A stretch of 45,434 nucleotides of DNA. Origin: Gammaproteobacteria bacterium. Lineage in GTDB: Bacteria; Pseudomonadota; Gammaproteobacteria; UBA9214. Where the stretch lies: the NCBI GenBank assembly GCA_049664445.1, contig JBATFE010000064.1, positions 1-45,434 of the forward strand. The letters are read 5' to 3'. Every line of letters starts with the position of its first letter. Within the stretch, counting starts at the first letter, position 1. The notes beneath the pieces were generated by a model that was not told the origin of the DNA, ran no database searches, and saw only the letters and a list, made by a program, of their open reading frames with translations. Positions 27,586 to 45,144 of this stretch are shown in pieces. Position numbers and translations under genes: made by a program.

Positions 27586-27633
27586 GCAGGGCTTGCAGGC
27601 ATTGTTGCAGGGACATGGGGGTGTTCATGCGCC

Positions 27634-29007
27634 TCATCTTGCAGGCGGGTCTATGCGGTACACGTGGCGTGACGTCTGCCGGATTCGTATACCACTGAAG
27701 CGTCCGGTCAATGCCCCGAGGCGGTCGATACGCCGCTGTAGCTCCATGATGCTGATGGGGGGAAAGCGGTGGTCGTGATAGCGCACGTTGTTACGGTGAC
27801 CCGGGCGATGCATGTTGATGCGCTTCTTCACGGTGCGTATTCTGGTGTGCAGCCATCCCTGCAAATAACCGGACAGGGGCACTGGTGGCGGCTGCCGTTG
27901 ATCATATCCCGCGGCGACCAGCACGCCCACCATGCGTTCCGCCGCAAACGGACCGCTCAAGGCCGCGATGTTACGGGCCAGCAACTGTTGCTGCTGTTCC
28001 GGCTGTCCTGCGCCGGGATCGTCGCCCGTCAGGAGTGCGTTCAGGGTGCTAATGACGTCATCAATGCGCACGGCGGGATAACCGAACTGCTGGGGCAGGG
28101 GATCCTCGAGTCCGGGCTCGGACACGGGTTTGAAGTTGACGGCGGGCAGCCCCAGCACGGCCGCTTCTATGAGGGTGGTGCAGCCATTGGCCACCAGCGC
28201 GCGTGCAGCCAGCAGCCACGGAACCACACTGCCCTCGTTGATCACGTGCAGATTGGGATGCTCAGCTGCTATTGCCTGCCAGGGCTCATGGCTCTCGGAC
28301 GGATGCGGACGCAGCACGATCGCCTGTTGCGGAAAGGCCTCGCAAAGGACCGGCAGCATGGAGAGAAAGGCTTCGAACAAGCGGACCTTCATGCGACCCC
28401 GACCCACATCGAAGGGATTATCCGCATCCGGACCCCGCCCCTCGACAGCCGCCTTCATCTCGCCGAGGTCGGAGTAGAAGTGATTGATCTGGCCGAAATT
28501 GGTATTGATGAGCAGAAAGTCCCCGTAGCGTTCCCTGATACGCTCTGCGTCCGGGCGGTAAAATTCGCGCAGTTCAGGCCGCATCAGGTCTACCCGGGGA
28601 TTGCCCGTGATATGGATGGGCGCGCCATGGTAATGAGGATACTGTCGCAGGGCATTGGCGTTGTCCTCGCCCCATGCCATCAGGTGAGCGACCTGGCGAA
28701 TCGCCGTCGGCGAGAGCCTGCGCCGGTAATACTCCTCGCCCGCGAAACGTACCAGCCCTTCCTCGTCCCAGGCCACGATCTCGTGTCCCAGCTCGCGCAG
28801 GATGCGGAACATGCGGTTGCTCAGCTTGCGCATACTCTTGGCCAGATAGACCCCTCGCGGGATGGAGGCCACCCGGTAATGGACGAAGGCGCGTGAGCCC
28901 AGCACGACGGGGAAGCCGCGCTCCGCGGCGACGCCGGAGAGAAACAGTTTGGCATCCAGCTCGCGGACCTGGTTTTCCACGGGGATGATCAGGGTCGAGG
29001 CGCTCAC
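27634..29007 (-). CDS. Uncharacterised surface-carbohydrate biosynthesis protein, candidate sialyl/nonulosonate (or Kdo-type) transferase
   Basis: A GTG at 29007 overlaps the neuA stop (GTGA) and lies 5 nt after GGAG, so it is preferred over the tracked start at 29040. The protein carries a D/E-D/E-G-type motif (WDEEG, nt 28756-28767) about 150 aa before an HP motif (VLRPHPSE, nt 28300-28305). Bacterial sialyltransferases show these two short motifs in this order. No other family signature recognised. Confidence 0.6.
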   Translation of the reverse strand: MSASTLIIPVENQVRELDAKLFLSGVAAERGFPVVLGSRAFVHYRVASIPRGVYLAKSMRKLSNRMFRILRELGHEIVAWDEEGLVRFAGEEYYRRRLSPTAIRQVAHLMAWGEDNANALRQYPHYHGAPIHITGNPRVDLMRPELREFYRPDAERIRERYGDFLLINTNFGQINHFYSDLGEMKAAVEGRGPDADNPFDVGRGRMKVRLFEAFLSMLPVLCEAFPQQAIVLRPHPSESHEPWQAIAAEHPNLHVINEGSVVPWLLAARALVANGCTTLIEAAVLGLPAVNFKPVSEPGLEDPLPQQFGYPAVRIDDVISTLNALLTGDDPGAGQPEQQQQLLARNIAALSGPFAAERMVGVLVAAGYDQRQPPPVPLSGYLQGWLHTRIRTVKKRINMHRPGHRNNVRYHDHRFPPISIMELQRRIDRLGALTGRFSGIRIRQTSRHVYRIDPPAR

Positions 29008-29717
29008 CCTGGCTCCTGTTGCAGCAGGAATTCCGCCCACGCCAGGTCGAGCGGCTCATCGATATTGACCACCGGGCGCTCTATGGGGACGGCGAGGGTA
29101 TCGTCCTGAATGATACTGCCCTGGTCCAGCAGGCCTTCCCGGGTCACCGCGTAAGCCAGACCGTTGCGGTAGTAATAGGCGCCGATCATCTGCCGGGAGG
29201 TGTAGCGCAGACCCTCTGCCAGGTAGGGTTTCAGATGGCCCTGGTCATCGATACAGAGGGTTCGTTCGGGGGTAAAGTGGGCCGGCGTCTGGCTGACCGT
29301 AACCGCAGAGCTGTTGCCGCTGTCTACCAGCAGGCGCACCGTCTTCAGGACATCATCCGGGCATCGCAGTGGACTGGTGGGTTCCAGCAGCACCGAGATA
29401 TCGATGCGGGTGCCGTAAGCCGCCTCGCTGGCATGCCAGGCATGCTGCCACATGTCCACGGCCGTGGCGCGGTCACCGGCCAGTTCCGGCGGGCGCATAA
29501 AGGGCACCTGCAGGCCATAGCGGCGACCCTCGGCCGCGATCTCCTCATCGTCTGTCGAGAGGATGCTGAAGTCCAGCCAGTCCAGCCCGGCCACCACATC
29601 GGCGGCCCGCGCAATCAGGGAGCGGCCGCCTATCCTCGACAGGTTCTTGCGCGGAATGCCCTTGCTGCCGCCGCGGGCGGGGATCACCGCGAGCACGGTT
29701 TTGTTCTCAAAACTCAT
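29004..29717 (-). CDS. neuA: Acylneuraminate cytidylyltransferase (CMP-sialic acid synthetase)
   Basis: N-terminal signature VLAVIPARGGSKGIPRKNL. About 237 aa, a CTP_transf_3-like layout. Confidence 0.9.
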   Translation of the reverse strand: MSFENKTVLAVIPARGGSKGIPRKNLSRIGGRSLIARAADVVAGLDWLDFSILSTDDEEIAAEGRRYGLQVPFMRPPELAGDRATAVDMWQHAWHASEAAYGTRIDISVLLEPTSPLRCPDDVLKTVRLLVDSGNSSAVTVSQTPAHFTPERTLCIDDQGHLKPYLAEGLRYTSRQMIGAYYYRNGLAYAVTREGLLDQGSIIQDDTLAVPIERPVVNIDEPLDLAWAEFLLQQEPG

Positions 29718-29989
29718 CTGTAGCTACCCGTAGCCATGTAGAGACTGTTGCACGTGCAATGATACGCTCTTTGGTCAACCGACCGCTCCAGGAAGAGAGC
29801 ACTGATGCAAGCAGCATTCCTGTATCCTTGCCACTGGTCATGTTCAAGCAACTCTCGTCAGGTGTAAACTTGGCGCACCCGGGTACATTCAGGCTGTCCC
29901 CGCCTTGACCAGGGCGGATGAAGCAGCATACAACACCGGGTCAACCATCCCGTGGATGGTACATGCAAGCTATCAACAAAGGCTCAGCT

Positions 29990-30934
29990 ATGACAATCAA
30001 GGTTGTATTCACCGGTCCACAGGAGGCGACGGCCTGGCTGGAAGAGGTGCTCGGCAGCGGTTTCGCCGTGATTCATGTCGCGGCGGAGCCGGAATCGGTC
30101 GCCCGTGGACTGCAGCAGGCGGATGTCTTTCTCGACGCCTCCATGAAGGTCCCGTTGACCGCTGCCATGATCAATGCAGCACACTCACTGCAACTGCTCA
30201 TTACCGCGACCACCGGGGCAGATCATATCGATACACAGGCGCTCGAGGCCCGTGGCATCCCGCTGAAAACACTGCGCGGGCAGGGCGAGTTTCTGCGCAA
30301 CATCACGCCGGCAGCGGAGCTGACCTGGCTGTTGCTGATGACCTGTGCCAGGCGTCTGCGTGGCGCCATCCAGCATGTGCAGGGTGGAGGCTGGGACCGC
30401 CAGCAGTTTCCCGGCATGATGCTGCATGGCCGCACGCTTGGCCTCATCGGTTGTGGCCGCATCGGCACCTGGGTATCCCGCTATGGCCAGGCCTTCGGGA
30501 TGCAGACGATCGGTTACGATCCCTTTTTGCAGCAGTTCCCGGAGACCATTGAGCAGCGCACCCTGGAGCAGGTGTTTTCCGAGGCCGACTTCGTGGCACT
30601 GACACTGACCTTCAGTGAAGCAACCCGGGGGCTGGTCACTGCCACGGAGCTGCAGCAGATGAAGCCGGGCGCGGTGCTGATCAACACATCACGGGGCGCC
30701 ATCGTGCGCGAACAGGACCTGCTGGAGGGTTTGCAGCAGGGGCGGCCGGCGTTCTACGGTACCGATGTCCTCGAAGGTGAACCCGATATCGGGCAGAGCC
30801 CCATCTGGCAATACGCCCGGGATCACGACAATGTCGTCATCACGCCGCATATCGGGGGATTCAGCCCCGACGCCCTGAAGCGGGTATTGCGCTTCACGGC
30901 GGAACGTATCGTCGCGTTTCTCGACCAGGGTTGA
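29990..30934 (+). CDS. D-isomer-specific 2-hydroxyacid dehydrogenase family protein, NAD-binding
   Basis: GRTLGLIGCGRIGTWVSRYGQAFGMQTIGYDP (GxGxxG plus the acidic end of beta-B) and the catalytic-His region VVITPHIGG. The ATG at 29990 (MTIKVVFTG) is preferred over the tracked 29918. Confidence 0.85.
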   Translation: MTIKVVFTGPQEATAWLEEVLGSGFAVIHVAAEPESVARGLQQADVFLDASMKVPLTAAMINAAHSLQLLITATTGADHIDTQALEARGIPLKTLRGQGEFLRNITPAAELTWLLLMTCARRLRGAIQHVQGGGWDRQQFPGMMLHGRTLGLIGCGRIGTWVSRYGQAFGMQTIGYDPFLQQFPETIEQRTLEQVFSEADFVALTLTFSEATRGLVTATELQQMKPGAVLINTSRGAIVREQDLLEGLQQGRPAFYGTDVLEGEPDIGQSPIWQYARDHDNVVITPHIGGFSPDALKRVLRFTAERIVAFLDQG

Positions 30935-30943
30935 TGCCGCGCA

Positions 30944-32494
30944 ATGTACCAGCAATTTGCCGCTGATTTCACCACGAGCGGGGGCCAGCTGGCCTTTGGC
31001 ATCACCGGCAGTGGACCCAGCCTGAGCCTCATCGATGCCCTGGAAAAGCACGGTGCGACGTTTATCACTACCGGTCACGAGAGTACCGCCGCATTGATGG
31101 CCGGCGCCTGCGCCCGCCTGGCGGGCAAGCCGGCACTGGCCCTGAGTATCAAGGGACCCGGTTTCATGAATATGCTGCCCGGGCTGCTGTGCAACGCCTA
31201 TGAGGGGCTCCCCTCGCTCTCGCTGGCCGAATCCTATCCACAGGGGCATGCAGACGCACGCTGCCACAAGTGGCTCGATCACCGCGCCGCCGCTGCCGAG
31301 TTCCTTAAGCAGCAGCGCTTCTTCGATCCCGGCCAGGGTTTTCTCGGGCACTGCTGGGCGAGTGCCCGGGAGGAGTTTCCGGGCCCGGTGCACATCGACC
31401 TGGGTGCTGGCGAGAATATTGCGACGGTGGCCGCTGCGGAGGCGCCGGACAGCCCCGATTTCGAACAACTGGCGAACCGCATCGCGCAATGCAGCCGGCC
31501 GGTCTTGATCGTCGGCTCACTGGGACTGCGCGCGCCCTGGGGCAGTGATCTGCAACACCTCGCTATCCCCGTTTTTACCACCCCGGCCGGCAAGGGTGTG
31601 CTGGATGAATCCCTGGCAATGGCCGCGGGCGTCTTCACCGGCGCCGGTAAACCCGACACCCCTGAAAAGCGCTTGCTGCCGGCGGCCGATCTGCTGGTGA
31701 TGCTGGGCGTGCGTGCCGGGGAGATACTCAATCCGGCGTTCGACCGGCCTGAAACCCTGCAGATCGATACCCTTGCGGCAAGCGGCGGGCAACTGTTTCC
31801 GGCCCGCAGCCTCGGCGAACAGCATATTCTCAGCGAGGCACAGATCGGGCAGCTGCTCGGTCTGCTGCAGCAAAAGCCGTGGGGTGAGGAGCGGATTGTC
31901 GCTGCCCGCGGGCATCTCGATGTGCTCGCCGAACAGTTTGGCTGGAGCCCGATAACCGCCATGCGGGTGTTACAGGCGGTTCTGCCCGGGGCCACCCACG
32001 TCCTCGATACCGGCAATTTTACCGTGCTGGGAGAACACTTCCTGAAGGCGACCACACCCAGCAGCCTGCTGGGTACGCCCAACGGCCGTTACATGGGGGC
32101 GGGGCTCGGCTACGCGCTTGGTGCAGCTTTCGCCTTGCCGGATACACCGGTCGTGCTGTGGATCGGCGACGGTGGCATCCGTTCACTGCTCGGTGAACTG
32201 GCGCTGGCGGCCGATCACAACCGCAAGCTGCTGGTGATGGTCATGAAGGATGGCTATTTCGGCAGCATTCGCGGCAGCGCCCTCAGCAATGGCCTGACAC
32301 AGAACCCGGTCAAGTTGTCCAAGCGCTCGCTGCTGCGCATCGGCGAGGCGCTCGGGTTGCATACGCTGGCGGCCGGCAGCGAAAGCCAGCTGCACAGCGT
32401 GCTCGATGGCTGGCGGCGGAATCCGGTGACAACACTGTGCGAATGCCCGCTGGAACCCGACCGTTACATCGAACTCACTGCGCGACTAAGGTGA
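30944..32494 (+). CDS. Thiamine-pyrophosphate-dependent enzyme, acetolactate-synthase-like fold
   Basis: N-terminal Pyr domain (AFGITGSGPSLSLIDAL...TGHESTAALMAGACARLAGKPALALSIKGPGFMN) and a C-terminal TPP-binding motif (IGDGGIRSLLGELALAADHNRKLLVMVMKDGYFGS). 516 aa. Confidence 0.85.
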   Translation: MYQQFAADFTTSGGQLAFGITGSGPSLSLIDALEKHGATFITTGHESTAALMAGACARLAGKPALALSIKGPGFMNMLPGLLCNAYEGLPSLSLAESYPQGHADARCHKWLDHRAAAAEFLKQQRFFDPGQGFLGHCWASAREEFPGPVHIDLGAGENIATVAAAEAPDSPDFEQLANRIAQCSRPVLIVGSLGLRAPWGSDLQHLAIPVFTTPAGKGVLDESLAMAAGVFTGAGKPDTPEKRLLPAADLLVMLGVRAGEILNPAFDRPETLQIDTLAASGGQLFPARSLGEQHILSEAQIGQLLGLLQQKPWGEERIVAARGHLDVLAEQFGWSPITAMRVLQAVLPGATHVLDTGNFTVLGEHFLKATTPSSLLGTPNGRYMGAGLGYALGAAFALPDTPVVLWIGDGGIRSLLGELALAADHNRKLLVMVMKDGYFGSIRGSALSNGLTQNPVKLSKRSLLRIGEALGLHTLAAGSESQLHSVLDGWRRNPVTTLCECPLEPDRYIELTARLR

Positions 32495-32738
32495 GCCTCG
32501 GCACGCAACGCATCATCAGGGGAGGGCACAGCGACAGAGGAACAGTCAGCCACAGATACTGGTCGTCGGCAGCGGTTCCGCGGGACAACGCCACGGCAGG
32601 AATCTTCGCGAACTCGGTTGCAGCATTAGCTATTTCGACCCGCGCGCCGACCGGGTCGAGCAGGCGGCGGCTACAGATGCAGCGGCCGGCCGCTTCACGG
32701 ACCTGGATAGCGCCATCGGCAAGCGTGCCTGGGACGGC

Positions 32739-33539
32739 GTGGTGATTGCCTCGCCACCCAATTTCCACGTGCAGCAGATACTGCAAATTCTGCATGCCCA
32801 GGCCTGCCCGGTGCTCAGTGAAAAGCCCCTGAGTATCGATGCGTCATCGGCGGCACGACTGCTAGAGTATTCCTCCCGCATCCTGCTGGGTTACACCTAC
32901 CGCTGGTGGCCGCCACTGGCAGAGTATCGACGCAGGCTGCAGGCGGGTGTCATCGGCAGTATCCGCAACATGCGTTTTGTCATGAGCGCCCACCTGGCGG
33001 ACTGGCACCCCTGGGAGCCCTACCAGGACTTCTTCATGGCCCAGAAAGGTCTGGGTGGCGGTGCCTTGCTGGATGAGAGTCACTTCATCGACCTGATGCT
33101 GTGGTTCCTCGGCTGGCCGCATAGCGTCTATGCCCAGGTCGACAAGATCTCGGACCTCGAGATCGACAGCGACGACAATGTCGACATCCTGGTGCGCTAT
33201 ACATCCGGCGAACGGGTCAATCTGCACCTTGACCTCATCGGACGGCCGCACGAGCGCAGCATCACGGCCGTGGGAGAGAAGGGCACCCTGGTCTATTCAT
33301 ACGAGGACAATGCCATTCTCCACGGCACCAGCGGGGAAAAGCTCTGGGACAGGCAAACCTTCGAATGCGAACGCAACGACATGTTCATGGGGGTTGCCCG
33401 CGACTACCTCGACATGATCAACGGCAGCCTGGTTGACAAGTGCTGCGCGGTGGAAGACGGTGTCGCCGCGCTGAAGATCGTGGATGCCTGTCGTCAGAGT
33501 TCCGCCACAGGGCGATCGGTCGCGCTTGGGGGCCAGTGA
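32739..33539 (+). CDS. Gfo/Idh/MocA family oxidoreductase; the tracked ORF lacks the Rossmann domain, which is encoded in-frame upstream without a canonical start
   Basis: The tracked ORF starts inside the conserved DGVVIASPPNFH...VLSEKPL segment. The same frame stays open back to 32490 and encodes ILVVGSGSAGQRHGRNL (GxGxxG) at 32556 onward. See the related finding. Confidence 0.75.
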   Translation: MVIASPPNFHVQQILQILHAQACPVLSEKPLSIDASSAARLLEYSSRILLGYTYRWWPPLAEYRRRLQAGVIGSIRNMRFVMSAHLADWHPWEPYQDFFMAQKGLGGGALLDESHFIDLMLWFLGWPHSVYAQVDKISDLEIDSDDNVDILVRYTSGERVNLHLDLIGRPHERSITAVGEKGTLVYSYEDNAILHGTSGEKLWDRQTFECERNDMFMGVARDYLDMINGSLVDKCCAVEDGVAALKIVDACRQSSATGRSVALGGQ

Positions 33540-33555
33540 ATAACCGCCGGCGATT

Positions 33556-34680
33556 GTGTCATGGCCCTTGCAGGGCATTGTCTCTTTATTGTGCCAGCGG
33601 GTTTTTAAAGTGAACGGCAAGCCAGCAGACAGCGCCTCGAACTTCACGCCTTACTTCGGCGGTCCGGATCTTCCGCGCGGCTGCCTGCGTGATGTGCTGG
33701 CGCAACGGGTGGCGGCCGTGCCGGCAGGCGGTGAGATCGACTGGGTCACCTACTATTTTCGTGACCGGCGACTGGCACAGGATTTACTCGATGCCCGCCG
33801 CAGGGGTGTCAGGGTGCGCGTGACGCTGGATGCAAAGCCACGTACCGGACATGCCAGCGAACGGGTCGTGGCCATGCTGTCAGGGCCCGATGGCCTGGGT
33901 CCTGATCTGCGCACCGTGCAGCACAGACCGTACCCCGGCTCCCGCAGGAAACCCCGCCTGCATGAGAAACTCTACTGTTTCTCCCACCCGGTTCCCGAGG
34001 CACTGCTTGGTTCGTTCAACCCGTCAGGCGATGATCCGGAAGAACAGCCGGATATCATCGACGAGATCCTGGACCAGGACCGGGGGCATAATTTTCTGGT
34101 GGCCATCAACGATCCGCAGTTGGTCAACGGACTGTTGCGGCATGCGCGCCATATCCACCGGGGCCGCCACGGGTTGCTGGAGCGTTTCGATCCGGCCATG
34201 AACAGGCGGCTCAGCAGCGGGGATACCACGATACACTTCTGGCCGCGCATTTTGCCCAACCCCTATTCGCACCTGCTGCAACGCTTTGGCAGCGGCGCCC
34301 TGGTGCGGGTGGCGGCCTCACACATCAAGGGGCCGGGTGGTGTACGTGATCTTGTCGGCCTGAGGCGTCGTGGCGCGCGGGTGGAGGTACTGGCGGAGAG
34401 TACCCACCGGCGCGTGCCTCCGGCAATCGAGACCACGCTGCTGCGGGCAGGGGTAAGGCTGCGGCGTTTTGAGCATCCCGAGGGACTGCCCATGCACAAC
34501 AAGTTCGTGCTGGTCGAGGACGGCAACGCGTGCCGGACCCTGTTCGGCAGCTGCAACTGGACATCCCGCTCCCGCTGGCTGAATCACGAGATTGGCGTTA
34601 TCACCCGAAATCGTGCCCTGTTCGAGACATTCTCACAACGCTGGGATACTATGCTTGGCCAGTTCACCATCCATGATTGA
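33556..34680 (+). CDS. Phospholipase D-like (two HKD motifs) protein with no signal peptide
   Basis: HKD motif 1 is RLHEKLYCF...GSFNPSGDD (His codon at 33961). HKD motif 2 is MHNKFVLVEDGNACRTLFGSCNWTSRS (His codon at 34495). The start is uncertain, GTG 33556 or GTG 33610. Confidence 0.75.
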   Translation: MSWPLQGIVSLLCQRVFKVNGKPADSASNFTPYFGGPDLPRGCLRDVLAQRVAAVPAGGEIDWVTYYFRDRRLAQDLLDARRRGVRVRVTLDAKPRTGHASERVVAMLSGPDGLGPDLRTVQHRPYPGSRRKPRLHEKLYCFSHPVPEALLGSFNPSGDDPEEQPDIIDEILDQDRGHNFLVAINDPQLVNGLLRHARHIHRGRHGLLERFDPAMNRRLSSGDTTIHFWPRILPNPYSHLLQRFGSGALVRVAASHIKGPGGVRDLVGLRRRGARVEVLAESTHRRVPPAIETTLLRAGVRLRRFEHPEGLPMHNKFVLVEDGNACRTLFGSCNWTSRSRWLNHEIGVITRNRALFETFSQRWDTMLGQFTIHD

Positions 34681-34692
34681 TCCAATATCCAA

Positions 34693-35739
34693 GTGACCGA
34701 TAGCTGGCTGCACAATCCACGTAACGCGGCGCCCTGCACCATTATTGCCGAGGTCGGCCAGGCCCACGACGGCAGCCTGGGTATGGCGCATGCCTTCATC
34801 GATGCGGCCGCGACGGCGGGCGCTGATGCCATCAAGTTCCAGACCCACATCGCCGCCGCCGAGAGCACCCTCGCCGAGCCCTGGCGAAAACGCTTCAGCC
34901 TGCAGGACGAGACGCGTCTCGATTACTGGCGCCGCATGGAATTCAGCGCCGAGCAGTGGGCCGGCCTGCAGCGCCACAGCCATGAACGCGGGCTGCTGTT
35001 CCTGAGTTCGCCCTTTTCCATGGAAGCACTGGAATTGCTGGAGCGCATTGGCGTGGCCGGCTGGAAGATTCCCTCCGGAGAGATCAACAACCCCCGGCTG
35101 CTGGAGGGCATGGGGCGTAGCGGACGTCCGGTGATGATTTCCACCGGCATGAGTCCCTGGCCCGAGATCGACGCGGCGGTAGAACGCGTGCGCGCTTTCA
35201 AGGTGCCGCTGGCGGTGCTGCAGTGCACCTCCATGTATCCCTGTCCGCCGGAACAGGTCGGACTGAACGTCATCGAGGAATTCAGGGCGCGTTACCAGTG
35301 TGCCGTGGGGCTGTCAGACCACTCCGCGAGCATTTATGCGGGGCTTGCTGCAGCCAGCCAGGGCATCGAGGTGCTGGAGGTGCATATCACACCCAGTCGC
35401 GAGCTTTTCGGGCCCGATATACCGGCGTCGGTGACAACCGCCGAACTGCGACAGCTGGTAACGGGCGTCCGGGCCATCGAAACCATGCGTGCCAACCCGG
35501 TAGACAAATCGGCACCGCCGGATGCGGTGACACCGCTCAGGGATATTTTCATGAAGAGCGTGGTTGCCAGCCGTGACATGGTCGCCGGTACGGTGCTGCA
35601 GACCGAACACCTGACCACCAAGAAACCGGGCTGCGGCATCCCCGCAGAGCAGCTGGAGTCATTGATAGGACTGCGTACACGCAGGGCAATCAGCCGGGAC
35701 AGCCTGATTTCAATGGATGACCTGGAGGGCAGATCATGA
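34693..35739 (+). CDS. neuB: N-acetylneuraminate (nonulosonate) synthase family protein
   Basis: IIAEVGQAHDGSLGMAHAFIDAAATAGADAIKFQTH (NeuB/PseI/LegI-type TIM barrel N-terminus) with a C-terminal SAF/antifreeze-like domain. GTG start. Confidence 0.88.
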   Translation: MTDSWLHNPRNAAPCTIIAEVGQAHDGSLGMAHAFIDAAATAGADAIKFQTHIAAAESTLAEPWRKRFSLQDETRLDYWRRMEFSAEQWAGLQRHSHERGLLFLSSPFSMEALELLERIGVAGWKIPSGEINNPRLLEGMGRSGRPVMISTGMSPWPEIDAAVERVRAFKVPLAVLQCTSMYPCPPEQVGLNVIEEFRARYQCAVGLSDHSASIYAGLAAASQGIEVLEVHITPSRELFGPDIPASVTTAELRQLVTGVRAIETMRANPVDKSAPPDAVTPLRDIFMKSVVASRDMVAGTVLQTEHLTTKKPGCGIPAEQLESLIGLRTRRAISRDSLISMDDLEGRS

Positions 35740-36896: not shown

Positions 36897-36908
36897 GGGT
36901 GGCTGGAT

Positions 36909-36940: not shown

Positions 36941-37143
36941 GCACCAGTATCCCGGAGGCTGGCACAACAGGTTGTACACGCAGTCAGTGCAACCGCATTC
37001 ACGGCTGTTAATCTCAGGGCGGTAAATGAAAATATGTTGCTCTGATCCCGCCAGTTGGGTGATGTACAGGAATCAGACGGCATACCGGACATTCAGCATT
37101 CTCCATCGTAGCGGATGCCTCGGGAAAAATATCAACAACATAT

Positions 37144-38037: not shown

Positions 38038-38178
38038 TGGGAGGTGGCGAGATTAATCGAGAAGTACGGCCTTCTTATTGACATACGAAGCATAACCTTC
38101 CCGTTTCGCGGGAATCAACCTGAACGGCCGTCGCAAACACACCTCCACGGCTGAATCGCTGACTCCCTGGCACGATAC

Positions 38179-38937
38179 CTAGAGAGTAGGTCGGAAATGT
38201 GAAGATCCTAGAAAGCGGCGGCTGTGTTTGAAGGCCTTCTGTCTTTCGTCGTGCAGGGCTTTCAACTCGTCGCCGTTACAGCCATCCAGCAACCCCTGGT
38301 CGCGAAAGACATCGAAGCGGAATCGGCGACCAAAGATCTGTTGGAGCACGTAACAAGTACGCAAGCGGGTTTCTACAATCGCCGAGACGCTCTGCCTGGA
38401 GTTGTTCACAACATGGACGAGGTCAAGGTCGCAGGTTTTGACACCATCCGATGGTGCCAGGGTAGACGGCCCGTCGACGAAGACGAACGAGTAAGGGCGA
38501 TCCGGCAGGTCACGGTAGCGCATGCCCCGGAACAGCCAATAATGGGTTTCCACGGTTGGGGACAAACGCAGGTCCACGTACTCACTCAGCGAAGCAGGAA
38601 ACAGTTCACCTGCCATTTCATACCAGCCCTGGTGCTCCTCCATCGAGGTTACCCGACCGGGTTCACTCCCTTCTCGGGCGTTTTCGGCTAACGCATAAGC
38701 GATCACTACGGTGGAGACGCCTGTACCGCACTCCAGTACTTCACGGGGCCGCAAAGTCCGTATGCGCCGATACAGCGTCGCATAGTCGGACCATGAGCAG
38801 CCAGTTGATTCGGTCCTGGACAGGTAGGTGCGCAGCAGCCGAGGAAGTTCTCCGGCAGATTCAATAAAGCGGCGGTCGCCTGTAGTGACCAACCTCTTGC
38901 CTATCGAGGTCAGGGCACGTCGCGCCGAATAAGTCAT
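38179..38937 (-). CDS. Class I SAM-dependent methyltransferase-like protein
   Basis: Motif I VLECGTGVSTVVIAYAL and a later FVFVDGP motif. The ATG at 38937 with GAGGA 8 nt upstream is preferred over the tracked GTG at 38988. Confidence 0.7.
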   Translation of the reverse strand: MTYSARRALTSIGKRLVTTGDRRFIESAGELPRLLRTYLSRTESTGCSWSDYATLYRRIRTLRPREVLECGTGVSTVVIAYALAENAREGSEPGRVTSMEEHQGWYEMAGELFPASLSEYVDLRLSPTVETHYWLFRGMRYRDLPDRPYSFVFVDGPSTLAPSDGVKTCDLDLVHVVNNSRQSVSAIVETRLRTCYVLQQIFGRRFRFDVFRDQGLLDGCNGDELKALHDERQKAFKHSRRFLGSSHFRPTL

Positions 38938-39021
38938 GTTCCTGTCCTCATCCAGTACTTTCGCCGTTATTCTCTTTGCCGTAAACACAACGAGCTATTG
39001 TTCCCGCCCCAACATTCACAG

Positions 39022-40761
39022 TCAATCACGGCCAGCAATATCCTTCACCAGCAGCACATGTCCGTCCTGCAAGCGGTAGGCCCGCTCGGCGGCGTCCAGC
39101 ATGGCAGGTTGGTGCGAGATGGCCAGGATGGTATGCGTACCCTGCAATGTGCGCAGGGTTTCGCAAATGGCCGCTTCACTCTTCGGGTCGAGTGCCGAGG
39201 TTGCCTCATCCAGTATCAGCAGCCGCGGACGGTGCACCAGGGCACGTGCAATCATGACGCGCTGCCGTTGACCGCCGGAGAGTTTGCCGCCGCGTTCACC
39301 GACGATGTGATGGATGCCCTCGGCCAGCTTCTCCACGAACGCCCAGGCGCCGGCTTCCCGGAGTGCCGAAATGACATCGGTTTCACTGATCCCGGGGTCT
39401 CCCAGTGCCACATTGTTGAGTACCGAATCGTGCAGCAGAACGGTTTCCTGCGGCACGTAACCGATGATGCTGCGCCAGCGGTGCAGATCGAGTTCCATCA
39501 GCGGAACCCCGTCGACCAGCAGTGTGCCACTATCCGGTTGCAACAAGCCGATGATCAGGTCCAGGCTGGTGGTCTTGCCCGACCCCGAGGGCCCGATCAG
39601 GGCGGTAAAGGAACCGGCCGGGATGCTGATGTTTATCTGCTCGAGTATTTTTTTCTCTGCATAGGCGAAACTGACATCCCGCAACTCGATGCCCTGCTCG
39701 AGGGTTGGCGTGCGCTCGCCCCCCAGGTCTTCGCGTGCGCGTTCAGCCCTGTTGATGGTTTTCTGGATCGACCAGTAGGCAGACTCGGAGACTGCCGTCT
39801 TCTGGTAGCTGCGTTGTACCTGGCCGGTCCTCTTCAATATCCTGGAGAGCAGAAAACCGAGTACCATCACCGTCGCAATCGGCAGTTCCCACTTCACCAG
39901 CGTGACATAGATACCGATTACCAGCACCAGCGCGAACAGTATCTCCTGTCCGGCTGACAGTAATTCGCTGCTCACCACTTCCCGGCGCAGGGCGCGGTTG
40001 ATATTCTTTGTCTCCGATACCAGCACGGTATCCACCAGGCCTTCGCGTCCCATCGACTTGAGTGGCTTCACCGACAGCAGGGTGTCTGTCAGGCGTGCAA
40101 TCATCAGCTTGGTATACAGTGTCTGGCGCCTGCCGGCCTTGCGTGCCATTTTGACCAGGCGACCCAGCGCCAGATAGATAAGCAGGCCCATCAGAAAAGA
40201 AAACAGCGCGGCCTGCCACATCACCAGGGTGGCGATGATGACGTAAACCAGCGCCTGTATAAGTTGTGATATCAGCGTAGCGCCATGCAGGTAGGCATTG
40301 GCTGCCCTGACTGCCTCGATCGACATGGAGTTGGTCAACTGTCCAAGCGGTTGATGCAGAAAGTATTCCCAGCGCGAGGCCAGCATTGCACGCAGCATCG
40401 ACAGGCGCAGGTCGGTGGCGACGTGGGCAACAATGTAGCCAACCTTTTTCTTGGCCAGCAGAATGAGACCGCCCTTGACGATCGCTCCAGCGACAATGAC
40501 CAATAGCAGCAACTCGACACTCGGTGACAACCCCACGGCCTCGATACTGCGGAGCACTGTATCGCCGACCCCGGAGTCGGAGCCGGCTTCAAGCGCTGCC
40601 GTATCATCACCGGGCGCACCCGGTTTCACCAGGACACGGTTCAGCAGTGGTAGCAGGGCGGTCAGACTGAGACCCTCGACCAGACCGGCCACCAGCAGTG
40701 CAATCAGCATGATGGCACTCTGCAGCGGGTAGGCTCGGGCAAAGGTCTTCAACAGGTGCAT
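39022..40761 (-). CDS. ABC transporter with fused permease and ATPase, MsbA-like lipid exporter type
   Basis: N-terminal six-helix TMD followed by an NBD with Walker A GPSGSGKTT, signature LSGGQRQR and Walker B LLILDEATSALD. 579 aa half-transporter. Confidence 0.92.
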   Translation of the reverse strand: MHLLKTFARAYPLQSAIMLIALLVAGLVEGLSLTALLPLLNRVLVKPGAPGDDTAALEAGSDSGVGDTVLRSIEAVGLSPSVELLLLVIVAGAIVKGGLILLAKKKVGYIVAHVATDLRLSMLRAMLASRWEYFLHQPLGQLTNSMSIEAVRAANAYLHGATLISQLIQALVYVIIATLVMWQAALFSFLMGLLIYLALGRLVKMARKAGRRQTLYTKLMIARLTDTLLSVKPLKSMGREGLVDTVLVSETKNINRALRREVVSSELLSAGQEILFALVLVIGIYVTLVKWELPIATVMVLGFLLSRILKRTGQVQRSYQKTAVSESAYWSIQKTINRAERAREDLGGERTPTLEQGIELRDVSFAYAEKKILEQINISIPAGSFTALIGPSGSGKTTSLDLIIGLLQPDSGTLLVDGVPLMELDLHRWRSIIGYVPQETVLLHDSVLNNVALGDPGISETDVISALREAGAWAFVEKLAEGIHHIVGERGGKLSGGQRQRVMIARALVHRPRLLILDEATSALDPKSEAAICETLRTLQGTHTILAISHQPAMLDAAERAYRLQDGHVLLVKDIAGRD

Positions 40762-40828
40762 GGCAGTTACCGTGTCTGAAGGGGGGCGGGCAGGTTAACC
40801 TGGGGTACAGAACTATCCGGGCGTGTGC

Positions 40829-42031
40829 TCAGGCGGTCGTCTGCAGTTTTTCCGTGAAAAGCGAAAAGGCGTCCAGAATGGCCTCGATCTGCACCTGGCT
40901 ATGGGCCGCGCTGAGACTGCAGCGCAGCAGCGGTTTGCCGCCCGGGGTAGCCGGCGGGAGGACCAGATTGACATAGATGCCCTGTGACAGTAATTCATTC
41001 CATAGTGCGGTTGTCTCCCCGACGGTTGCGGGCAGTCGCACCGCTATCACCGGGCTGATCTCCGGGCCGAGCTCAAAACCCATGGCCGCCAGGCCCTGGT
41101 ACAGTTGTGTGGCGTTGTCCCAGAGTTTTTTCCGCAGTGCGCTGCTACGGCTGAGGATCTCCAGGGCTTTACGGGTCGAGGCAATCAGGGACGGTGAGGA
41201 GGATGCGGTGAATATGTAGGGACGCATGGCATAGCGCACAGTTTCCAGCTGCGGCCAGCGGCTGACACAGAAGCCACCGATAGACCCCAGGCTTTTACTG
41301 AAGGTGCCGGTAATGAAGTCCACCCCGGACTCGACACCGAGCTCTTCAGCCAGCCCCCTGCCTTGCTCGCCGAGCACGCCCAGCGAATGGGCCTCGTCTA
41401 TCAGCAGCGATGCGCCATAGCGGTTCTTGACGTCTACAATCTCGCGCAACGGTGCCCGGTCACCGAGCATGCTGTAGATCCCTTCCACCACCACCAGGGT
41501 GTTGCCGGCACGGTCACCCAGTCGTTGCAGGCGCTTTTCCAGATCCGCCGGGTTGTTGTGCTGAAAACGGATCACCTGGGCGCTTCCGAGACGGGTGCCA
41601 TCGTAGATACTGGCATGACAATCGGCGTCCAGCAGGATGACATCCTCGGAACCCGTCAGCGTCGAGAGTATCGCCAGATTCGCGATGTAGCCGGTTGAAA
41701 AGACAATTGCAGCGGGACAGTTGAAAAAGGCCGCCAGTTCGTTCTCCAGCGCCACGTGCGCGGCATAGCTGCCGTTCGCCATGCGCGAGCCCGTGGTGCC
41801 GGTGCCCTCTTCACTGACCGCCCTGCAGGCTGCTGCGACGCATTCCGGATCGAAGGTGAGTCCCAGATAGTTGTTGGTGCCGGCCATGATCACCTTGCGG
41901 CCATTGATGATCGCTTCTGTGGCCGACACCACGCGCTCTACGACGACATGAAAGGGGTCCACGCCACTGTCGGCAACCAGCCCGGCACGCGTTTCCTCAA
42001 GGGGCCGGAATTTATCGAAAAGGCTTGCCAT
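40829..42031 (-). CDS. spt: Serine palmitoyltransferase-like alpha-oxoamine synthase, PLP-dependent
   Basis: PLP-lysine motif GTFSKSLGSIGGF (Lys codon at 41294-41296). The N-terminus LFDKFRPL...GVDPFHVVVERVVSATEAIINGRKVIMAGTNNYLGLTFDP and the central DEAHSLG resemble the Sphingomonas SPT sequence as I recall it. The start lies 3 nt after the ACP stop. Confidence 0.85.
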   Translation of the reverse strand: MASLFDKFRPLEETRAGLVADSGVDPFHVVVERVVSATEAIINGRKVIMAGTNNYLGLTFDPECVAAACRAVSEEGTGTTGSRMANGSYAAHVALENELAAFFNCPAAIVFSTGYIANLAILSTLTGSEDVILLDADCHASIYDGTRLGSAQVIRFQHNNPADLEKRLQRLGDRAGNTLVVVEGIYSMLGDRAPLREIVDVKNRYGASLLIDEAHSLGVLGEQGRGLAEELGVESGVDFITGTFSKSLGSIGGFCVSRWPQLETVRYAMRPYIFTASSSPSLIASTRKALEILSRSSALRKKLWDNATQLYQGLAAMGFELGPEISPVIAVRLPATVGETTALWNELLSQGIYVNLVLPPATPGGKPLLRCSLSAAHSQVQIEAILDAFSLFTEKLQTTA

Positions 42032-42034
42032 CTG

Positions 42035-42283
42035 TCAGCTCTCTTTCAGCAATTCCTGCAATTGTTCTGCCAAATCTCCAAGGCTGTTTACCCTGGGAAG
42101 GATATTCAGGGGCACAGAGATATCGAAATGATCCTCGATCTGCGTCATCAGTTCCATGACCTTCACTGAATCCAGGCCCACCTCATTGATGAGGCCGGTC
42201 TCTTCACCGAGCTCGATCGGTTCCTTGGCGTAAGGACGAACCAGTGCGTAGAGTTGATCAAGGATTTCCTGTTTGCTCTGCAT
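42035..42283 (-). CDS. Acyl carrier protein, stand-alone
   Basis: Phosphopantetheine attachment site GLDSVKVMEL. The ATG at 42283 (MQSKQEILDQLY) with GGAGA about 10 nt upstream is preferred over the tracked start at 42334. Confidence 0.85.
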   Translation of the reverse strand: MQSKQEILDQLYALVRPYAKEPIELGEETGLINEVGLDSVKVMELMTQIEDHFDISVPLNILPRVNSLGDLAEQLQELLKES

Positions 42284-42388
42284 CTTTGTCCGGTCTCCAT
42301 AATTGTATGGATGCGGCTGGCCGACATCCAGCATGCACGTTATCGGTCATCAGCCTGATACGCAATTACACTTTGCTGACAGGCCGTC

Positions 42389-43336
42389 TCATGCCGCACG
42401 CGCGGGCCCACCCCAGCCCATGGTACGCTGCAGGCCCTCTTGCAGGGAAAATCCCGGCTGCCAGCCGATAGCGGCAGTCAATGCCGCGTTATCCGCTACC
42501 CAGTCGGGATGCCGCAGCTCGCGTACCTTTCCCGGTGTCAGCATGGGAGCATAACCGATCAAGCGTGCAGTGGTGGCATTCACGGCAGCAAGCGAGCGCA
42601 ACAACGCTGACGGCAAGGGTAGCCGGATGATGCGTTTGCCGCGCAGCGCCGAGATAATGGCGATGATGTCATCCCAGCTGTAACCACCGGCCCGGGTATC
42701 GTTCAGTTCGTAAATTCCGCTACGGCACTGTCCGGCATCAAGCCACATGAGCACAGCGGCGCACAGGTCTTCGACATACAGCAATGACACCCGGGCATCC
42801 GCTGCCCCCAGTACCGGCGCAATGCCACGCCCCATCCACTGGAACAGCGGCAGCATTTCCCTGTCCCCCGGGCCGTATACGGCGGGGGGGCGGAATGCAG
42901 CCCACTCCATATCATCTGCCATGCTGGCCAGGGCATCTTCCCCCTGGCGCTTGCTGGATGCGTAATGGGAGAGCTGCGGTGCACGCGCTGCCAGAGACGA
43001 GAGCGACAGAAATCTGGGTCTGGGTGACTGCGCGAGTGCGGCCTGCACCAGCTGTTTCACAGCGTCGACATTGACGGTGTTGAAATCGTCAGCCGTCACG
43101 CCACGAACGGCGCCGGCACAGTGCACCACGGCTTCGGCACCCTGCAGCAAGCGCTGTAGTGTCAGGCGATCGTGCAGAGAACCGATTACGGTTTCAAGCC
43201 CGGTCAACTCCGGGAGTTTATGGGCGGAACGGGGACGCGTCAGTGCTTTTACATGCCAGCCGGCGCTCAGCAGGTGTTTCGTCAGCATGGCGCCGATGAA
43301 GCCGGTGGCGCCGGTTACGGCAATGGTTCGTGACAT
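42389..43336 (-). CDS. NAD-dependent epimerase/dehydratase family (extended SDR) protein, candidate CerR-like ketoreductase
   Basis: N-terminal IAVTGATGFIGAMLTKHL Rossmann motif, 315 aa. It lies between the acyl-ACP synthetase and the ACP, as the epimerase-like reductase does in the Caulobacter ceramide cluster. Confidence 0.85.
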   Translation of the reverse strand: MSRTIAVTGATGFIGAMLTKHLLSAGWHVKALTRPRSAHKLPELTGLETVIGSLHDRLTLQRLLQGAEAVVHCAGAVRGVTADDFNTVNVDAVKQLVQAALAQSPRPRFLSLSSLAARAPQLSHYASSKRQGEDALASMADDMEWAAFRPPAVYGPGDREMLPLFQWMGRGIAPVLGAADARVSLLYVEDLCAAVLMWLDAGQCRSGIYELNDTRAGGYSWDDIIAIISALRGKRIIRLPLPSALLRSLAAVNATTARLIGYAPMLTPGKVRELRHPDWVADNAALTAAIGWQPGFSLQEGLQRTMGWGGPARAA

Positions 43337-43362
43337 GAAGAACCAGCGGCATCTGCGGGTTG

Positions 43363-45144
43363 TCAGCCGGCCTCTTGCTGTGACAGGCCGGTCGTCGCTT
43401 CCCTCTGTCGCTGCACAGCGATCGGTTTGAGCGGGTGCGCGTCGATGTAATTCTGTCTTGCCTTGGATCGGGACAGCTTGCCCGACGAAGTCCGCGGCAG
43501 GGTGTGTAGCGGCGCCAGCTCGATGTGGCAGTCGACGCCCACCTCGGCATGGATCAGTCCCTGCAGGTGCCTGATCAATTCCGCGCGCTTGTCACTGTCC
43601 TTGTCGCGGTACTGCACCACCATCACCGCTACGTCCGCGCCATCCGTACCCGGCACTGCAAATGCAAGGGCGTCTCCCGGACGCACATCCGGCTGCTGCT
43701 CCGCAAGCTGCTCCAGATCCTGCGGCCAGATATTGCGGCCGTTGATGATGATCAGATCCTTGCTGCGACCTGTGATCATGATGCTGTCACCTGCCCGGTA
43801 GCCGATGTCACCCGTGTTCAGCCAGCCATCCGCCGAGAGCGTCTCGGCCGTGATAGCCGGTTCGTTGAAGTAACCCGACATGACACTTGGCGCACGCACG
43901 TGGAGTACACCGATATGCCGTTCCGGCAGCACCTGTCCCGCGGCATCCCTTACCTCGACTTCAAACGACGACAGCGGTACACCACAGTTCACAAACTCAC
44001 TCAGGCGCCCGTTGACCGCCTCCGCCGCCGGTCGTGCATGATCCAGCAGTGCCAGGTGATCCGCATCCACACGGTCCACCGCCAGCCCGCCACCCAGTGG
44101 CGCAAAACTCACCGCCAGTGAACACTCCGCCATGCCGTAACAGGCCAGAAATGCCTTGCGATCAAATCCGCTCGGGGCAAGTGTCTCTGCAAAGTCACGC
44201 AGAACCTGTGGCCGGATCGTCTCCGCACCCACGCCCGCGACACGCCAGGCGCTCAGGTCAAACGTTTCAGCCTCACCTTCACGCAGTCGCCGGTTGCACA
44301 GTTCATAACCAAACGGCGGACTGAACGAGATAGTCGCCTTGTTGCGTGACACCAGCGACAACCACTGGCGCGGGCGCATCGCAAACTCGCGCGTGCCGAG
44401 ATAGTCCACCGACAACTGCGAGGCCAGCGGTGCCAGCACCAGGCCGACCAGGCCCATGTCATGATAGAAGGGCAGCCAGGAGACGCAACGGTCCGTTATC
44501 CTCATTTCCATACCTTCGGTGATGATCCCCGAAAGGTTGTTCAATACTGCCCGCTGGGTAATCATCACACCCCGTGGAAAACGGGTACTGCCCGAGGTGT
44601 ACTGCAGATAGGCAAGCTCATCAGCCTGCATTGGTTGCAACACGCCGGCCTGCTGTGACAGTGCGTCATAGTCTTGCGGCGTGCCGACAAACGTCAGCTC
44701 CAGCCCCGCGGTCGCACCTGAAAGCAGATCTGAATAATCTGTCGGCGCCATCGCCAGCGATGCCTGGCAGCCTTGCGTCATGGCGCGTATCTGCGCGACA
44801 TACGCCTTGTGACTGCCCGGGTTATGGGGAATAGGTAACGGTACCGGAACCAGGCCCGCGTACTGACAGGCAAAGAAAAAACGCAGAAAATCGGGATGGG
44901 TGTCCGCAACGATGACCATGCGCGCGCCGCGCGCGGTCCCCAGACCACGCAGCCGTCGCGCCAGACACTGTGCCTGATCTCTCAGTTCCGCATAGGTCAG
45001 CACCGCATAGAGCTCGCCGCGACTGGTATAGAAGTTACACCCTGTTCGCCCCAACGCAGCATAATCAAGGGCCGCTGCAAGATTCGGAAAATCCGCAGCC
45101 CTCAATGGCAGGTTGTTACCAGTTTTAGTTGCTTCCAAACCCAA
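43363..45144 (-). CDS. Fatty-acyl-AMP ligase / acyl-ACP synthetase, AMP-binding superfamily
   Basis: Adenylation core YLQYTSGSTRFPRGVMITQ, later GWLNTGDIGY and a C-terminal SSGKLSR. The TTG start at 45144 lies 7 nt after GAGGAG. Confidence 0.9.
   Translation of the reverse strand: MGLEATKTGNNLPLRAADFPNLAAALDYAALGRTGCNFYTSRGELYAVLTYAELRDQAQCLARRLRGLGTARGARMVIVADTHPDFLRFFFACQYAGLVPVPLPIPHNPGSHKAYVAQIRAMTQGCQASLAMAPTDYSDLLSGATAGLELTFVGTPQDYDALSQQAGVLQPMQADELAYLQYTSGSTRFPRGVMITQRAVLNNLSGIITEGMEMRITDRCVSWLPFYHDMGLVGLVLAPLASQLSVDYLGTREFAMRPRQWLSLVSRNKATISFSPPFGYELCNRRLREGEAETFDLSAWRVAGVGAETIRPQVLRDFAETLAPSGFDRKAFLACYGMAECSLAVSFAPLGGGLAVDRVDADHLALLDHARPAAEAVNGRLSEFVNCGVPLSSFEVEVRDAAGQVLPERHIGVLHVRAPSVMSGYFNEPAITAETLSADGWLNTGDIGYRAGDSIMITGRSKDLIIINGRNIWPQDLEQLAEQQPDVRPGDALAFAVPGTDGADVAVMVVQYRDKDSDKRAELIRHLQGLIHAEVGVDCHIELAPLHTLPRTSSGKLSRSKARQNYIDAHPLKPIAVQRQREATTGLSQQEAG

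Follow-up and report, generated by a model that had tools for sequence, protein, structure and literature searches.

The 45,434-nucleotide contig JBATFE010000064.1 (assembly GCA_049664445.1; Gammaproteobacteria, UBA9214), hereafter the window, carries at positions 27634-45144 a locus in which genes for a sphingolipid stand together with genes for an activated nonulosonic acid. Judged by gene families and by gene neighbourhoods in relatives, the locus probably makes a ceramide carrying a nonulosonic acid, which would be flipped across the inner membrane by an ATP-binding cassette (ABC) exporter, and probably belongs to a widespread, undescribed cluster type. Two genes are central to this reading: g1, the window's member of the TIGR04396 family, and a gene for a two-HKD enzyme of the phospholipase D (PLD) superfamily. 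We refer to genes of these two kinds as the pair, and infer that the sugar would end up on the ceramide. All 16 reading frames given in an initial annotation of this DNA (16 of 16) were found at their positions, and its family assignments agree with Pfam and NCBIfam throughout.

Linkage of the pair to sphingolipid genes

In all, 125 related loci were fetched, labelled L with a three-digit number. A scan anchored on serine palmitoyltransferase (SPT), with one genome per species, gave 70 loci and a PLD-anchored metagenome scan gave 42; further annotated contexts were gathered around homologs of g1 and of the PLD-like gene. Genes for a fatty acyl-AMP ligase (FAAL), a short-chain dehydrogenase/reductase (SDR), an acyl carrier protein (ACP) and SPT are kept together in about 50 of the 70 SPT-anchored loci, with the ABC gene following SPT in the closer ones. 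Of the PLD-anchored metagenome contigs with enough sequence to tell, most have PLD and TIGR04396 genes side by side.

The layout of the window, SPT-ABC / neuC-neuB-PLD-Gfo-TPP-2HADH / neuA-TIGR04396 (Gfo, Gfo/Idh/MocA oxidoreductase; TPP, thiamine-diphosphate enzyme; 2HADH, 2-hydroxyacid dehydrogenase), is repeated in two relatives. L114 encodes a g1 protein 85% identical to that of the window and an intact Gfo, while L006, a Sedimenticolaceae metagenome-assembled genome (MAG) whose SPT is 74% identical, matches the layout exactly. Both lack the sulfotransferase and methyltransferase genes of the window. In L078, L081, L117, L118, L120 and L125, which represent distant lineages where taxonomy is available, the pair shares one gene run with SPT and the ABC gene. 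The order is FAAL-SDR-ACP-SPT-ABC-orf-PLD-TIGR04396 in L078, SDR-ACP-SPT-ABC-PLD-TIGR04396 in L120 and SDR-SPT-ABC-PLD-TIGR04396-Gfo-NeuB/cupin in L117, a Dissulfuribacterales MAG; the same components occur in L118. L081 carries ABC-FAAL-SDR-ACP-SPT-TIGR04396-PLD on one strand, and then Tam41-like, DAGK_cat, CDP-alcohol transferase, LptF/G, two nucleotidyltransferase and cerS-like genes. Linkage of the pair to spt extends to lineages with only 62-64% SPT identity to the window, often co-directionally and with gaps of 30-60 nt.

In L084, L115 and L123 the pair adjoins ceramide-kinase-like, CDP-alcohol-transferase, LptF/G and cerS-like genes. L115 has neuC-neuB-PLD-Gfo-TPP-2HADH beside two CDP-alcohol transferases, LptF/G, a nucleotidyltransferase, DAGK_cat and an ABC gene. 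In L123, a Logan contig (SRR4235513) from the cultured betaproteobacterium Nitrosovibrio tenuis, PLD, two TIGR04396-like genes, NeuB and cytidylyltransferases stand beside DAGK_cat and a CDP-alcohol transferase, with Wzy_C and GT2-GtrA-PMT_2 genes close by. L084 first looked negative, with no SPT within 10 kb, but annotation then revealed genes of ceramide-kinase-like, Tam41-like, CDP-alcohol transferase, LptF/G and cerS-like type, none more than 8 kb from PLD. For L122, which showed TIGR04396 and nonulosonate genes and no SPT, we predicted SPT further upstream on that contig; the prediction held, as L125 contains FAAL-SDR-ACP-SPT-ABC-PLD-Gfo-NeuB... as one co-directional run.

The pair is thus beside or inside sphingolipid genes in all nine independent contigs long enough to judge (9/9), which span Gammaproteobacteria, N. 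tenuis and Thermodesulfobacteriota. Outside this tally stand L124 (Myxococcales), which is ambiguous, and two contigs from the window's own lineage in which the position of SPT lies beyond the fetched flank. Gene order varies between lineages while the association persists, a pattern expected under selection for linkage and not under accidental adjacency. The neighbourhood comparison, including the co-conservation of neu and lipid genes in L114 and L006, therefore bears out the earlier proposal that these genes belong together.

A different reading is that the region from uvrD to spt-ABC is a slot for a hypervariable surface-glycan island, its sugar destined for lipopolysaccharide (LPS) core or O-antigen, capsule or protein, and that the two modules are merely both envelope loci. 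The content of the slot does differ among the close relatives L001-L004, L072 and L113: in L003 and L004 it holds GT4, WaaS/CpsH-type glycosyltransferase (GT) and TagF-like genes, and in L001 a TagF-like gene, a pyruvyl transferase, a TIGR04396 paralog and a cytidylyltransferase-HAD fusion. LPS-type genes occur in L123 (Wzy_C and GT2-GtrA-PMT_2), L084 and L121/L122, as well as in L003 with its WaaS/CpsH GT, and the Tannerella enzymes related to g1 act on protein glycans (PMC5420450). However, the pair travels with spt across diverged lineages, in differing orders and often in co-directional runs, which mere adjacency to an island does not predict, and every contig long enough to judge contains sphingolipid genes. 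The window itself has neither undecaprenyl-phosphate machinery nor a capsule exporter: Pfam detected no Wzx, Wzy, KpsM/KpsT, KpsC/KpsS or initiating phosphoglycosyltransferase among its annotated open reading frames (ORFs), which agrees with the initial annotation on Wzx/Wzy and KpsMT. We regard separate modules as unlikely. Under the ceramide reading, other head-group genes in the ABC-uvrD slot of close relatives fit a lipid head group that varies between strains.

Organisation of the locus

Strand and spacing alone lead us to postulate three operons (Table 1). The first, on the minus strand, runs FAAL, SDR, ACP, SPT, ABC, methyltransferase and sulfotransferase with gaps of 26, 105, 3, 67, 84 and 141 nt. 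On the plus strand follow 2HADH, TPP enzyme, Gfo, PLD, NeuB and NeuC, in this order from 29990 to 36896, and the third unit, again on the minus strand, consists of the NeuA-like gene and then g1. The gaps of the first unit and the ATGA and GTGA overlaps noted earlier were reproduced from the coordinates. Promoter and terminator scans of 26400-45434 performed no better than on shuffled sequence and are consequently uninformative on operon boundaries. The contig end cuts the right end of the locus 290 nt past FAAL, and over its last 335 bases the window shares 72-83% identity with the spacer that lies upstream of FAAL in L001-L004.

Table 1 Genes of the locus, in order along the window, with the family evidence for each
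Gene product	Position	Strand	Evidence
g1, TIGR04396 'surface carbohydrate biosynthesis protein', candidate nonulosonic-acid transferase	27634..29007	-	TIGR04396, 357 bits vs cutoff 125
NeuA-like CMP-nonulosonate synthetase	29004..29717	-	PF02348 CTP_transf_3
D-isomer-specific 2-hydroxyacid dehydrogenase (2HADH)	29990..30934	+	2-Hacid_dh_C, E = 5.7e-49
Acetolactate-synthase-like thiamine-diphosphate (TPP) enzyme	30944..32494	+	TPP_enzyme N/M/C domains
Gfo/Idh/MocA oxidoreductase	32490..33539	+	Pfam; frame intact, canonical start codon lost
Two-HKD PLD-superfamily enzyme	33556/33610..34680	+	PLDc_2 x2
NeuB-family nonulosonate synthase, closest to Neu5Ac synthases	34693..35739	+	PF03102 + SAF
NeuC, hydrolysing UDP-GlcNAc 2-epimerase	35736..36896	+	TIGR03568, 372 bits vs cutoff 236
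Sulfotransferase (Sulfotransfer_3)	37144..38037	-	PF13469, E = 2.6e-28
S-adenosylmethionine-dependent methyltransferase (Methyltransf_24)	38179..38937	-	PF13578, E = 7e-6
ABC half-transporter (transmembrane + nucleotide-binding domain), MsbA/PglK/HepA-like	39022..40761	-	Pfam ABC_membrane + ABC_tran
Serine palmitoyltransferase (SPT)	40829..42031	-	NF047599 equivalog, 616 bits vs cutoff 500
Dedicated ACP (acpR-like)	42035..42283	-	PF00550 PP-binding, E = 6.8e-10; 3 nt upstream of SPT
SDR, NAD-dependent epimerase family, candidate ceramide reductase (cerR-like)	42389..43336	-	Pfam Epimerase/3Beta_HSD/NmrA
FAAL / acyl-ACP synthetase (aasR-like)	43363..45144	-	NF006624, 786 bits vs cutoff 600; Pfam AMP-binding

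Ceramide core genes and exporter

The FAAL would load a fatty acid onto the dedicated ACP. The SDR is conserved with SPT and corresponds in position to CC_1164 of the Caulobacter cluster (PMC11324152). For the SPT sequence of the window, an exact look-up found no record. Upstream of FAAL in L001-L004, after the spacer that is homologous to the end of the window, lie a gene for a 417-aa cerS-like protein with a weak GNAT match, which recurs in 31 loci, and then two nucleotidyltransferase genes and LptF/LptG. No NCBIfam model recognised the cerS-like protein or the unknown proteins of related islands.

Were the SPT-like enzyme to make no sphingoid base, the FAAL, ACP, alpha-oxoamine synthase and SDR would yield some other amino-lipid or a signalling alpha-hydroxyketone. 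Alpha-oxoamine synthases have diverse functions, the enzyme also scores on bioF (324 bits), Kbl (309 bits) and CqsA-type NCBIfam models, and the window has no cerS. Its match to the SPT equivalog is, however, far above those to the other models; relatives carry the cerS-like GNAT, two nucleotidyltransferases and LptF/G in the order of the Caulobacter cluster (PMC11324152), and the right end of the window is homologous to the spacer preceding these very genes in L001-L004. Given the equivalog score and the synteny with a Caulobacter-type cluster, a product other than a sphingoid base seems very improbable.

The ABC half-transporter is the proposed flippase for the decorated lipid. It lies directly after SPT in L001-L006, L078, L114, L117, L120 and L125, accompanies the head-group module and is absent from many SPT clusters that lack the module. 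Its best NCBIfam matches (HepA, MsbA and PglK) are all below cutoff, and no chain-length or carbohydrate-binding domain was seen with Pfam.

The TIGR04396 protein

The TIGR04396 family is large, comprising 1,270 clusters at 50% identity with E <= 1e-30, and has members about 55% identical to g1 in Thermodesulfobacteriota. The D/E-D/E-G and HP motifs noted earlier in g1 are kept across 31 homologs: in WDEEG (residues 80-84) E82 and E83 are invariant, and in RPHP (residues 233-236) the R and both P residues are invariant and H is present in at least 90%. The AlphaFold model (pLDDT 87.8) has two Rossmann-like domains, with GT-B matches in Foldseek at E ~1e-7. The locus therefore does contain a GT-B-type enzyme, and the statement that it has no ordinary GT-A or GT-B glycosyltransferase stands only in the sense that g1 lies outside the Pfam GT families. 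A PDB sequence search with the g1 profile returned chance matches only.

Members of the BFO_1060 family, which have the same two motifs, are, on genetic evidence, needed to add pseudaminic or legionaminic acid derivatives in Tannerella forsythia (PMC5420450), and g1 matches the model of that family (NF046086) weakly, at 46.6 bits (E = 2.5e-12). In addition, the stop codon of the NeuA-like gene overlaps the start of g1 (GTGA). On the strength of its fold, motifs, distant BFO_1060 homology and overlap with a CMP-nonulosonate synthetase gene, we consider g1 a candidate nonulosonic-acid transferase.

The window has one TIGR04396 copy; paralog pairs, 35-43% identical to g1, occur in L074, L086, L092, L094, L113, L115 and L118. 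Two such paralogs suggest two successive transfers or a polymerising step.

The two-HKD PLD-like protein

An identical PLD-like protein is on record, annotated at 356 aa. Both catalytic motifs, H118/K120...GSFN and H296/K298...GSxN, are invariant in 31 homologs. The AlphaFold model (pLDDT 87.9) is bilobed and aligns with PLD3, PLD, PPK1 and PssA in Foldseek at TM 0.6-0.66, being no nearer to PLD3 or PPK1 than to the phosphatidylserine synthase PssA; searched against PDB sequences, the profile reached only Zucchini/MitoPLD and Nuc. In relatives the gene sits amid ceramide-kinase-like, Tam41-like and CDP-alcohol-transferase genes. Most simply, the enzyme would make or exchange the head-group phosphodiester, possibly from CDP-activated ceramide phosphate. 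No signal peptide or membrane segment is evident in g1 or in the PLD-like protein, as would suit assembly at the cytoplasmic face before the ABC exporter flips the lipid.

In L124, a Myxococcales MAG, a PLD homolog 61% identical to that of the window is flanked by two CDP-alcohol phosphatidyltransferases and a nucleotidyltransferase, with no TIGR04396 gene. This context points to a phospholipid-type role of the PLD enzyme independent of the sugar transferase.

The pair could also be read as making a sphingolipid-anchored polymer or a phosphodiester-linked head group, with the TIGR04396 protein as a TagF-like phosphotransferase or polymerase, the PLD enzyme attaching the chain to ceramide phosphate and the ABC protein exporting a teichoic-acid-like or polysialic-like capsule. 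PLD enzymes act on phosphodiesters, CDP-alcohol transferases and ceramide-kinase-like or Tam41-like genes flank the pair in L081, L084, L115, L123 and L124, and a chain could end in a methyl or sulfate cap, as it does in O-antigen systems of the ABC-dependent type. The fold matches of g1 include a TagF-like capsule polymerase (8a0m), and some family members match Pfam Glyphos_transf (TagF-like; best E = 1.1e-6), but such matches are found in only 2 of 31 members. Likewise, many clusters have two TIGR04396 paralogs, whereas the window has a single gene. The conserved motifs and the coupling to a CMP-nonulosonate synthetase argue for glycosyl transfer, and the exporter has no visible domain for chain length or carbohydrate binding. 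We judge a polymer or phosphodiester-linked head group, which is a variant of the main reading, improbable and retain g1 as a candidate transferase that would act on ceramide.

Nonulosonate supply

NeuB and the NeuA-like protein are assigned at family level. NeuB scores 313 bits with TIGR03569 (cutoff 400) and 195 bits with PseI, which leaves it short of equivalog level, and the best NCBIfam model for the NeuA-like protein is PseF (109 bits, cutoff 206). The sugar is putatively N-acetylneuraminic acid (Neu5Ac).

The 2HADH gene is co-conserved with that of the TPP enzyme, for which every NCBIfam model is far below cutoff, and together with Gfo they form a trio co-conserved with the NeuC/NeuB version of the cluster. 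This trio may make a substituent or an acceptor alcohol. L114 has an intact Gfo ortholog of 333 aa, with which the window's Gfo shares 86% identity over 330 aa. The ATG of this ortholog corresponds to AGG at 32538-32540 in the window; no ATG, GTG or TTG follows before 32739, and the GTG at that position lies beyond the Rossmann GxGxxG motif. The GTGA at 32491-32494, previously read as the start of Gfo, has its GTG in another frame than the conserved Gfo body and is discarded. Gfo may be an inactive pseudogene or be translated from a non-canonical start (ATA 32556 or CTG 32559), or the change may reflect an error in the MAG consensus. A frameshift, considered on account of ORFs 32437-32745 and 32739-33539 lying in different frames, was rejected, as the conserved frame is uninterrupted and it is the ATG that is lost.

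The supply set differs between clusters. NeuC/NeuB/NeuA with 2HADH, TPP and Gfo is found in the window, L006, L076, L103, L114 and L115, and a Pse/Leg-like (pseudaminic/legionaminic acid-like) set in L072. In L113, L117, L118, L121 and L125, NeuB is fused to a cupin domain and accompanied by a HAD phosphatase and one or two cytidylyltransferases. These fusions, of about 507 aa (L113:1-394, L117:8027-9550, L118:3716-5239, L125:12248-13771), belong to the many clusters in which NeuC/NeuB is replaced, and with the phosphatase they may constitute a Kdn-type route via a phosphorylated intermediate.

Strain-specific sulfotransferase and methyltransferase genes

GC content is 0.50 in the sulfotransferase gene and 0.57 in the methyltransferase gene, compared with 0.60-0.64 in the flanking genes, and the low-GC segment 36897-39021, which separates neuC from the ABC gene, appears to have been inserted recently by horizontal transfer. 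Relatives with the same layout have no DNA counterpart of this segment, both genes being absent from L114 and L006. None of the 125 fetched loci contains a sulfotransferase homolog; methyltransferase homologs are present in L106 (54%), flanked by ABC and PLD, and in L115 (35%), next to 2HADH. Being strain-specific, sulfation and methylation would be optional decorations outside the conserved system. The product first proposed, a sialylated and/or sulfated or O-methylated sphingolipid, is hence supported in its lipid-sugar part, whose genes are co-conserved, and not in sulfation and methylation as parts of the core.

Proposed pathway and points against it

In the pathway that we propose, FAAL, ACP and SPT would form a long-chain base, and cerS and the SDR would complete the ceramide; the families are those found here and the chemistry is taken from Caulobacter. 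NeuC, NeuB and NeuA would supply a CMP-sialic-acid-type donor. At the cytoplasmic face the TIGR04396 enzyme would move the nonulosonic acid onto the ceramide head group, and the PLD enzyme would make or exchange the head-group phosphodiester, perhaps from CDP-activated ceramide phosphate in the way that PssA uses CDP-diacylglycerol. The methyltransferase and sulfotransferase might then decorate the lipid in this strain. Finally, the ABC exporter would flip the lipid, and Lpt-like paralogs of the kind seen in relatives would deliver it to the outer membrane.

Several observations weigh against this pathway. On the lipid side, cerS is not in the window, where the contig stops first, and Caulobacter CerR is reported to be periplasmic (PMC11087976), which complicates a purely cytoplasmic order of assembly. 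On the sugar side, NeuB and NeuA fall below their equivalog cutoffs, and the BFO_1060 model has a cutoff of 200 bits, so g1 falls outside that family. The Foldseek matches of g1 are generic GT-B proteins (2-epimerases, LpxB and GT4) and do not single out sialyltransferases; the fold alone thus does not fix the donor. The pair occurs without nonulosonate genes within 10 kb in L081 and L120, and most SPT clusters (L012-L050) lack the head-group module. Some related clusters also include LPS-type genes, namely a Wzy_C/O-antigen-ligase-like gene in L123, a Kdo hydroxylase in L084 and Lip_A_acyltrans in L121/L122, so that the sugar could go to an LPS-like acceptor.

Relation to known systems

An experimentally defined system for comparison is the sphingolipid cluster of Caulobacter crescentus (see also Stankeviciute et al. 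2022). Spanning CC_1152-CC_1168, it encodes a ceramide kinase, a CDP-DAG-synthase-like protein, a CDP-alcohol transferase, two nucleotidyltransferases, second copies of LptC/F/G and a candidate flippase, and its products are ceramide phosphoglycerates (PMC11324152). The window shares with it an aasR-like FAAL, a cerR-like SDR, acpR and spt, to which relatives of the window add a cerS-like GNAT and L081, L084 and L115 the two nucleotidyltransferases, second LptF/G, candidate flippase, DAGK_cat and CDP-alcohol transferase. An anionic outer-membrane sphingolipid is predicted for window-type loci as for the Caulobacter cluster. In contrast to the window, the Caulobacter cluster has no NeuB/NeuC/NeuA, no TIGR04396 gene and no head-group enzyme described as PLD-like (PMC11324152); its head group is a phosphoglycerate, or a hexose or hexuronic acid under phosphate limitation, rather than a nonulosonic acid, and an ABC exporter directly after spt is a feature of the window. 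A bacterial cluster for complex sphingolipids, with head-group enzymes and a transport route, is in this respect known, and it is the head-group module and the predicted product that are new.

The Tannerella forsythia transferases Tanf_01245, TFUB4_00887 and BFO_1060 resemble g1 in that they are GT-B/TagB-like, measure about 445-460 aa, have D/E-D/E-G and HP motifs and are encoded beside nonulosonate genes (PMC5420450). They differ in that they finish a protein O-glycan rather than a lipid and have no PLD partner, and g1 is outside their family. Kdo2-lipid A and group 2 (Kps) capsules offer a parallel in mechanism, with a CMP-activated ulosonic acid added to a membrane lipid at the cytoplasmic face, ABC export and Lpt delivery, and Kps polysialic capsules are likewise lipid-anchored. 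The window, however, has no WaaA, KpsC/KpsS or KpsMT, and its predicted anchor is ceramide, not lipid A or lyso-phosphatidylglycerol.

The head groups described for bacterial sphingolipids are hexoses, uronic acids, phosphoglycerate, phosphoethanolamine or inositol phosphate. The glycosphingolipids of Sphingomonas and Caulobacter (GSL-1 to GSL-4; Sgt1/Sgt2) are similar to the predicted product in that an acidic sugar lies next to the ceramide and functions of LPS are taken over, but that sugar is glucuronic or galacturonic acid, added together with hexoses by GT4/GT2-type enzymes; we know of no report of nonulosonic acid on them. Gangliosides are regarded as a eukaryotic feature. Those of vertebrates and echinoderms, like a glycosphingolipid of the alga Emiliania huxleyi, are ceramides with a sialic-acid-type sugar, and in echinoderms the sialic acids also bear O-methyl and O-sulfate groups. 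Unlike the product predicted here, these lipids are made in the eukaryotic Golgi by GT29 sialyltransferases acting on a hexose core. The enzymes proposed here are unrelated (bacterial SPT, cerS, CerR, a GT-B TIGR04396 protein and PLD), and the window encodes no hexosyltransferase. The earlier word 'mimic' for a ganglioside- or sulfatide-like product, taken in the sense of host mimicry, is unsupported for an environmental bacterium. The literature, within our incomplete coverage of it, describes no such cluster or lipid under nonulosonic or sialic acid with bacterial sphingolipids, or under TIGR04396.

A conserved bacterial cluster joining ceramide synthesis to CMP-nonulosonate synthesis would define a new class of bacterial outer-membrane lipid, provide the first functional context for two large uncharacterised families, TIGR04396 and its PLD-like partner, and suggest a lipid on which environmental bacteria carry nonulosonic acids. 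More tentatively, and with somewhat less than even confidence, we propose that many environmental Gram-negative bacteria make 'bacterial gangliosides': lipids in which a nonulosonic acid is set next to ceramide by a dedicated pair of PLD and TIGR04396 enzymes, flipped by an MsbA-like protein and delivered by a duplicate Lpt system. They would form the sphingolipid counterpart of Kdo-lipid A, with a sugar that varies between strains (Neu5Ac, Pse/Leg or Kdn-like, methylated or sulfated) as O-antigen serotypes do. Candidate producers are sulfur-oxidising Gammaproteobacteria, ammonia-oxidising Nitrosovibrio and relatives of sulfate reducers, and such lipids would be the carrier of part of the nonulosonic acids widely detected in environmental bacteria. 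As the cultured N. tenuis carries the module, the idea is directly testable.

Flanking genes

The left 27 kb of the window is an origin-proximal chromosomal region with yidC, mnmE, mnmG, rsmG, parAB, a cardiolipin-synthase-like PLD gene, the atp operon, glmU, glmS, uvrD and a conserved hypothetical gene. The PLD gene of this region (10282-11853; 523 aa; PLDc_2 x2 + PLDc), located between parB and the atp operon, is a second member of the superfamily and unrelated to that of the locus.

The conserved hypothetical gene, hyp321 (26620-27585), encodes 321 aa with a signal-peptide-like N-terminus and matches no Pfam or NCBIfam family. In L003, L004, L072, L113 and L114 it always lies between uvrD and the variable island. 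We considered hyp321 as a diverged Tam41-like candidate for a CDP-ceramide synthase and rejected this on the hhalign comparison, which assigned it a probability of 0.2.

The region downstream of glmS is the usual insertion position of Tn7-like elements. In the window, the stretch of about 1.1 kb at this position (23100-24220) has only short ORFs (23622-24080, minus strand; 23782-24120, plus strand) without family hits.

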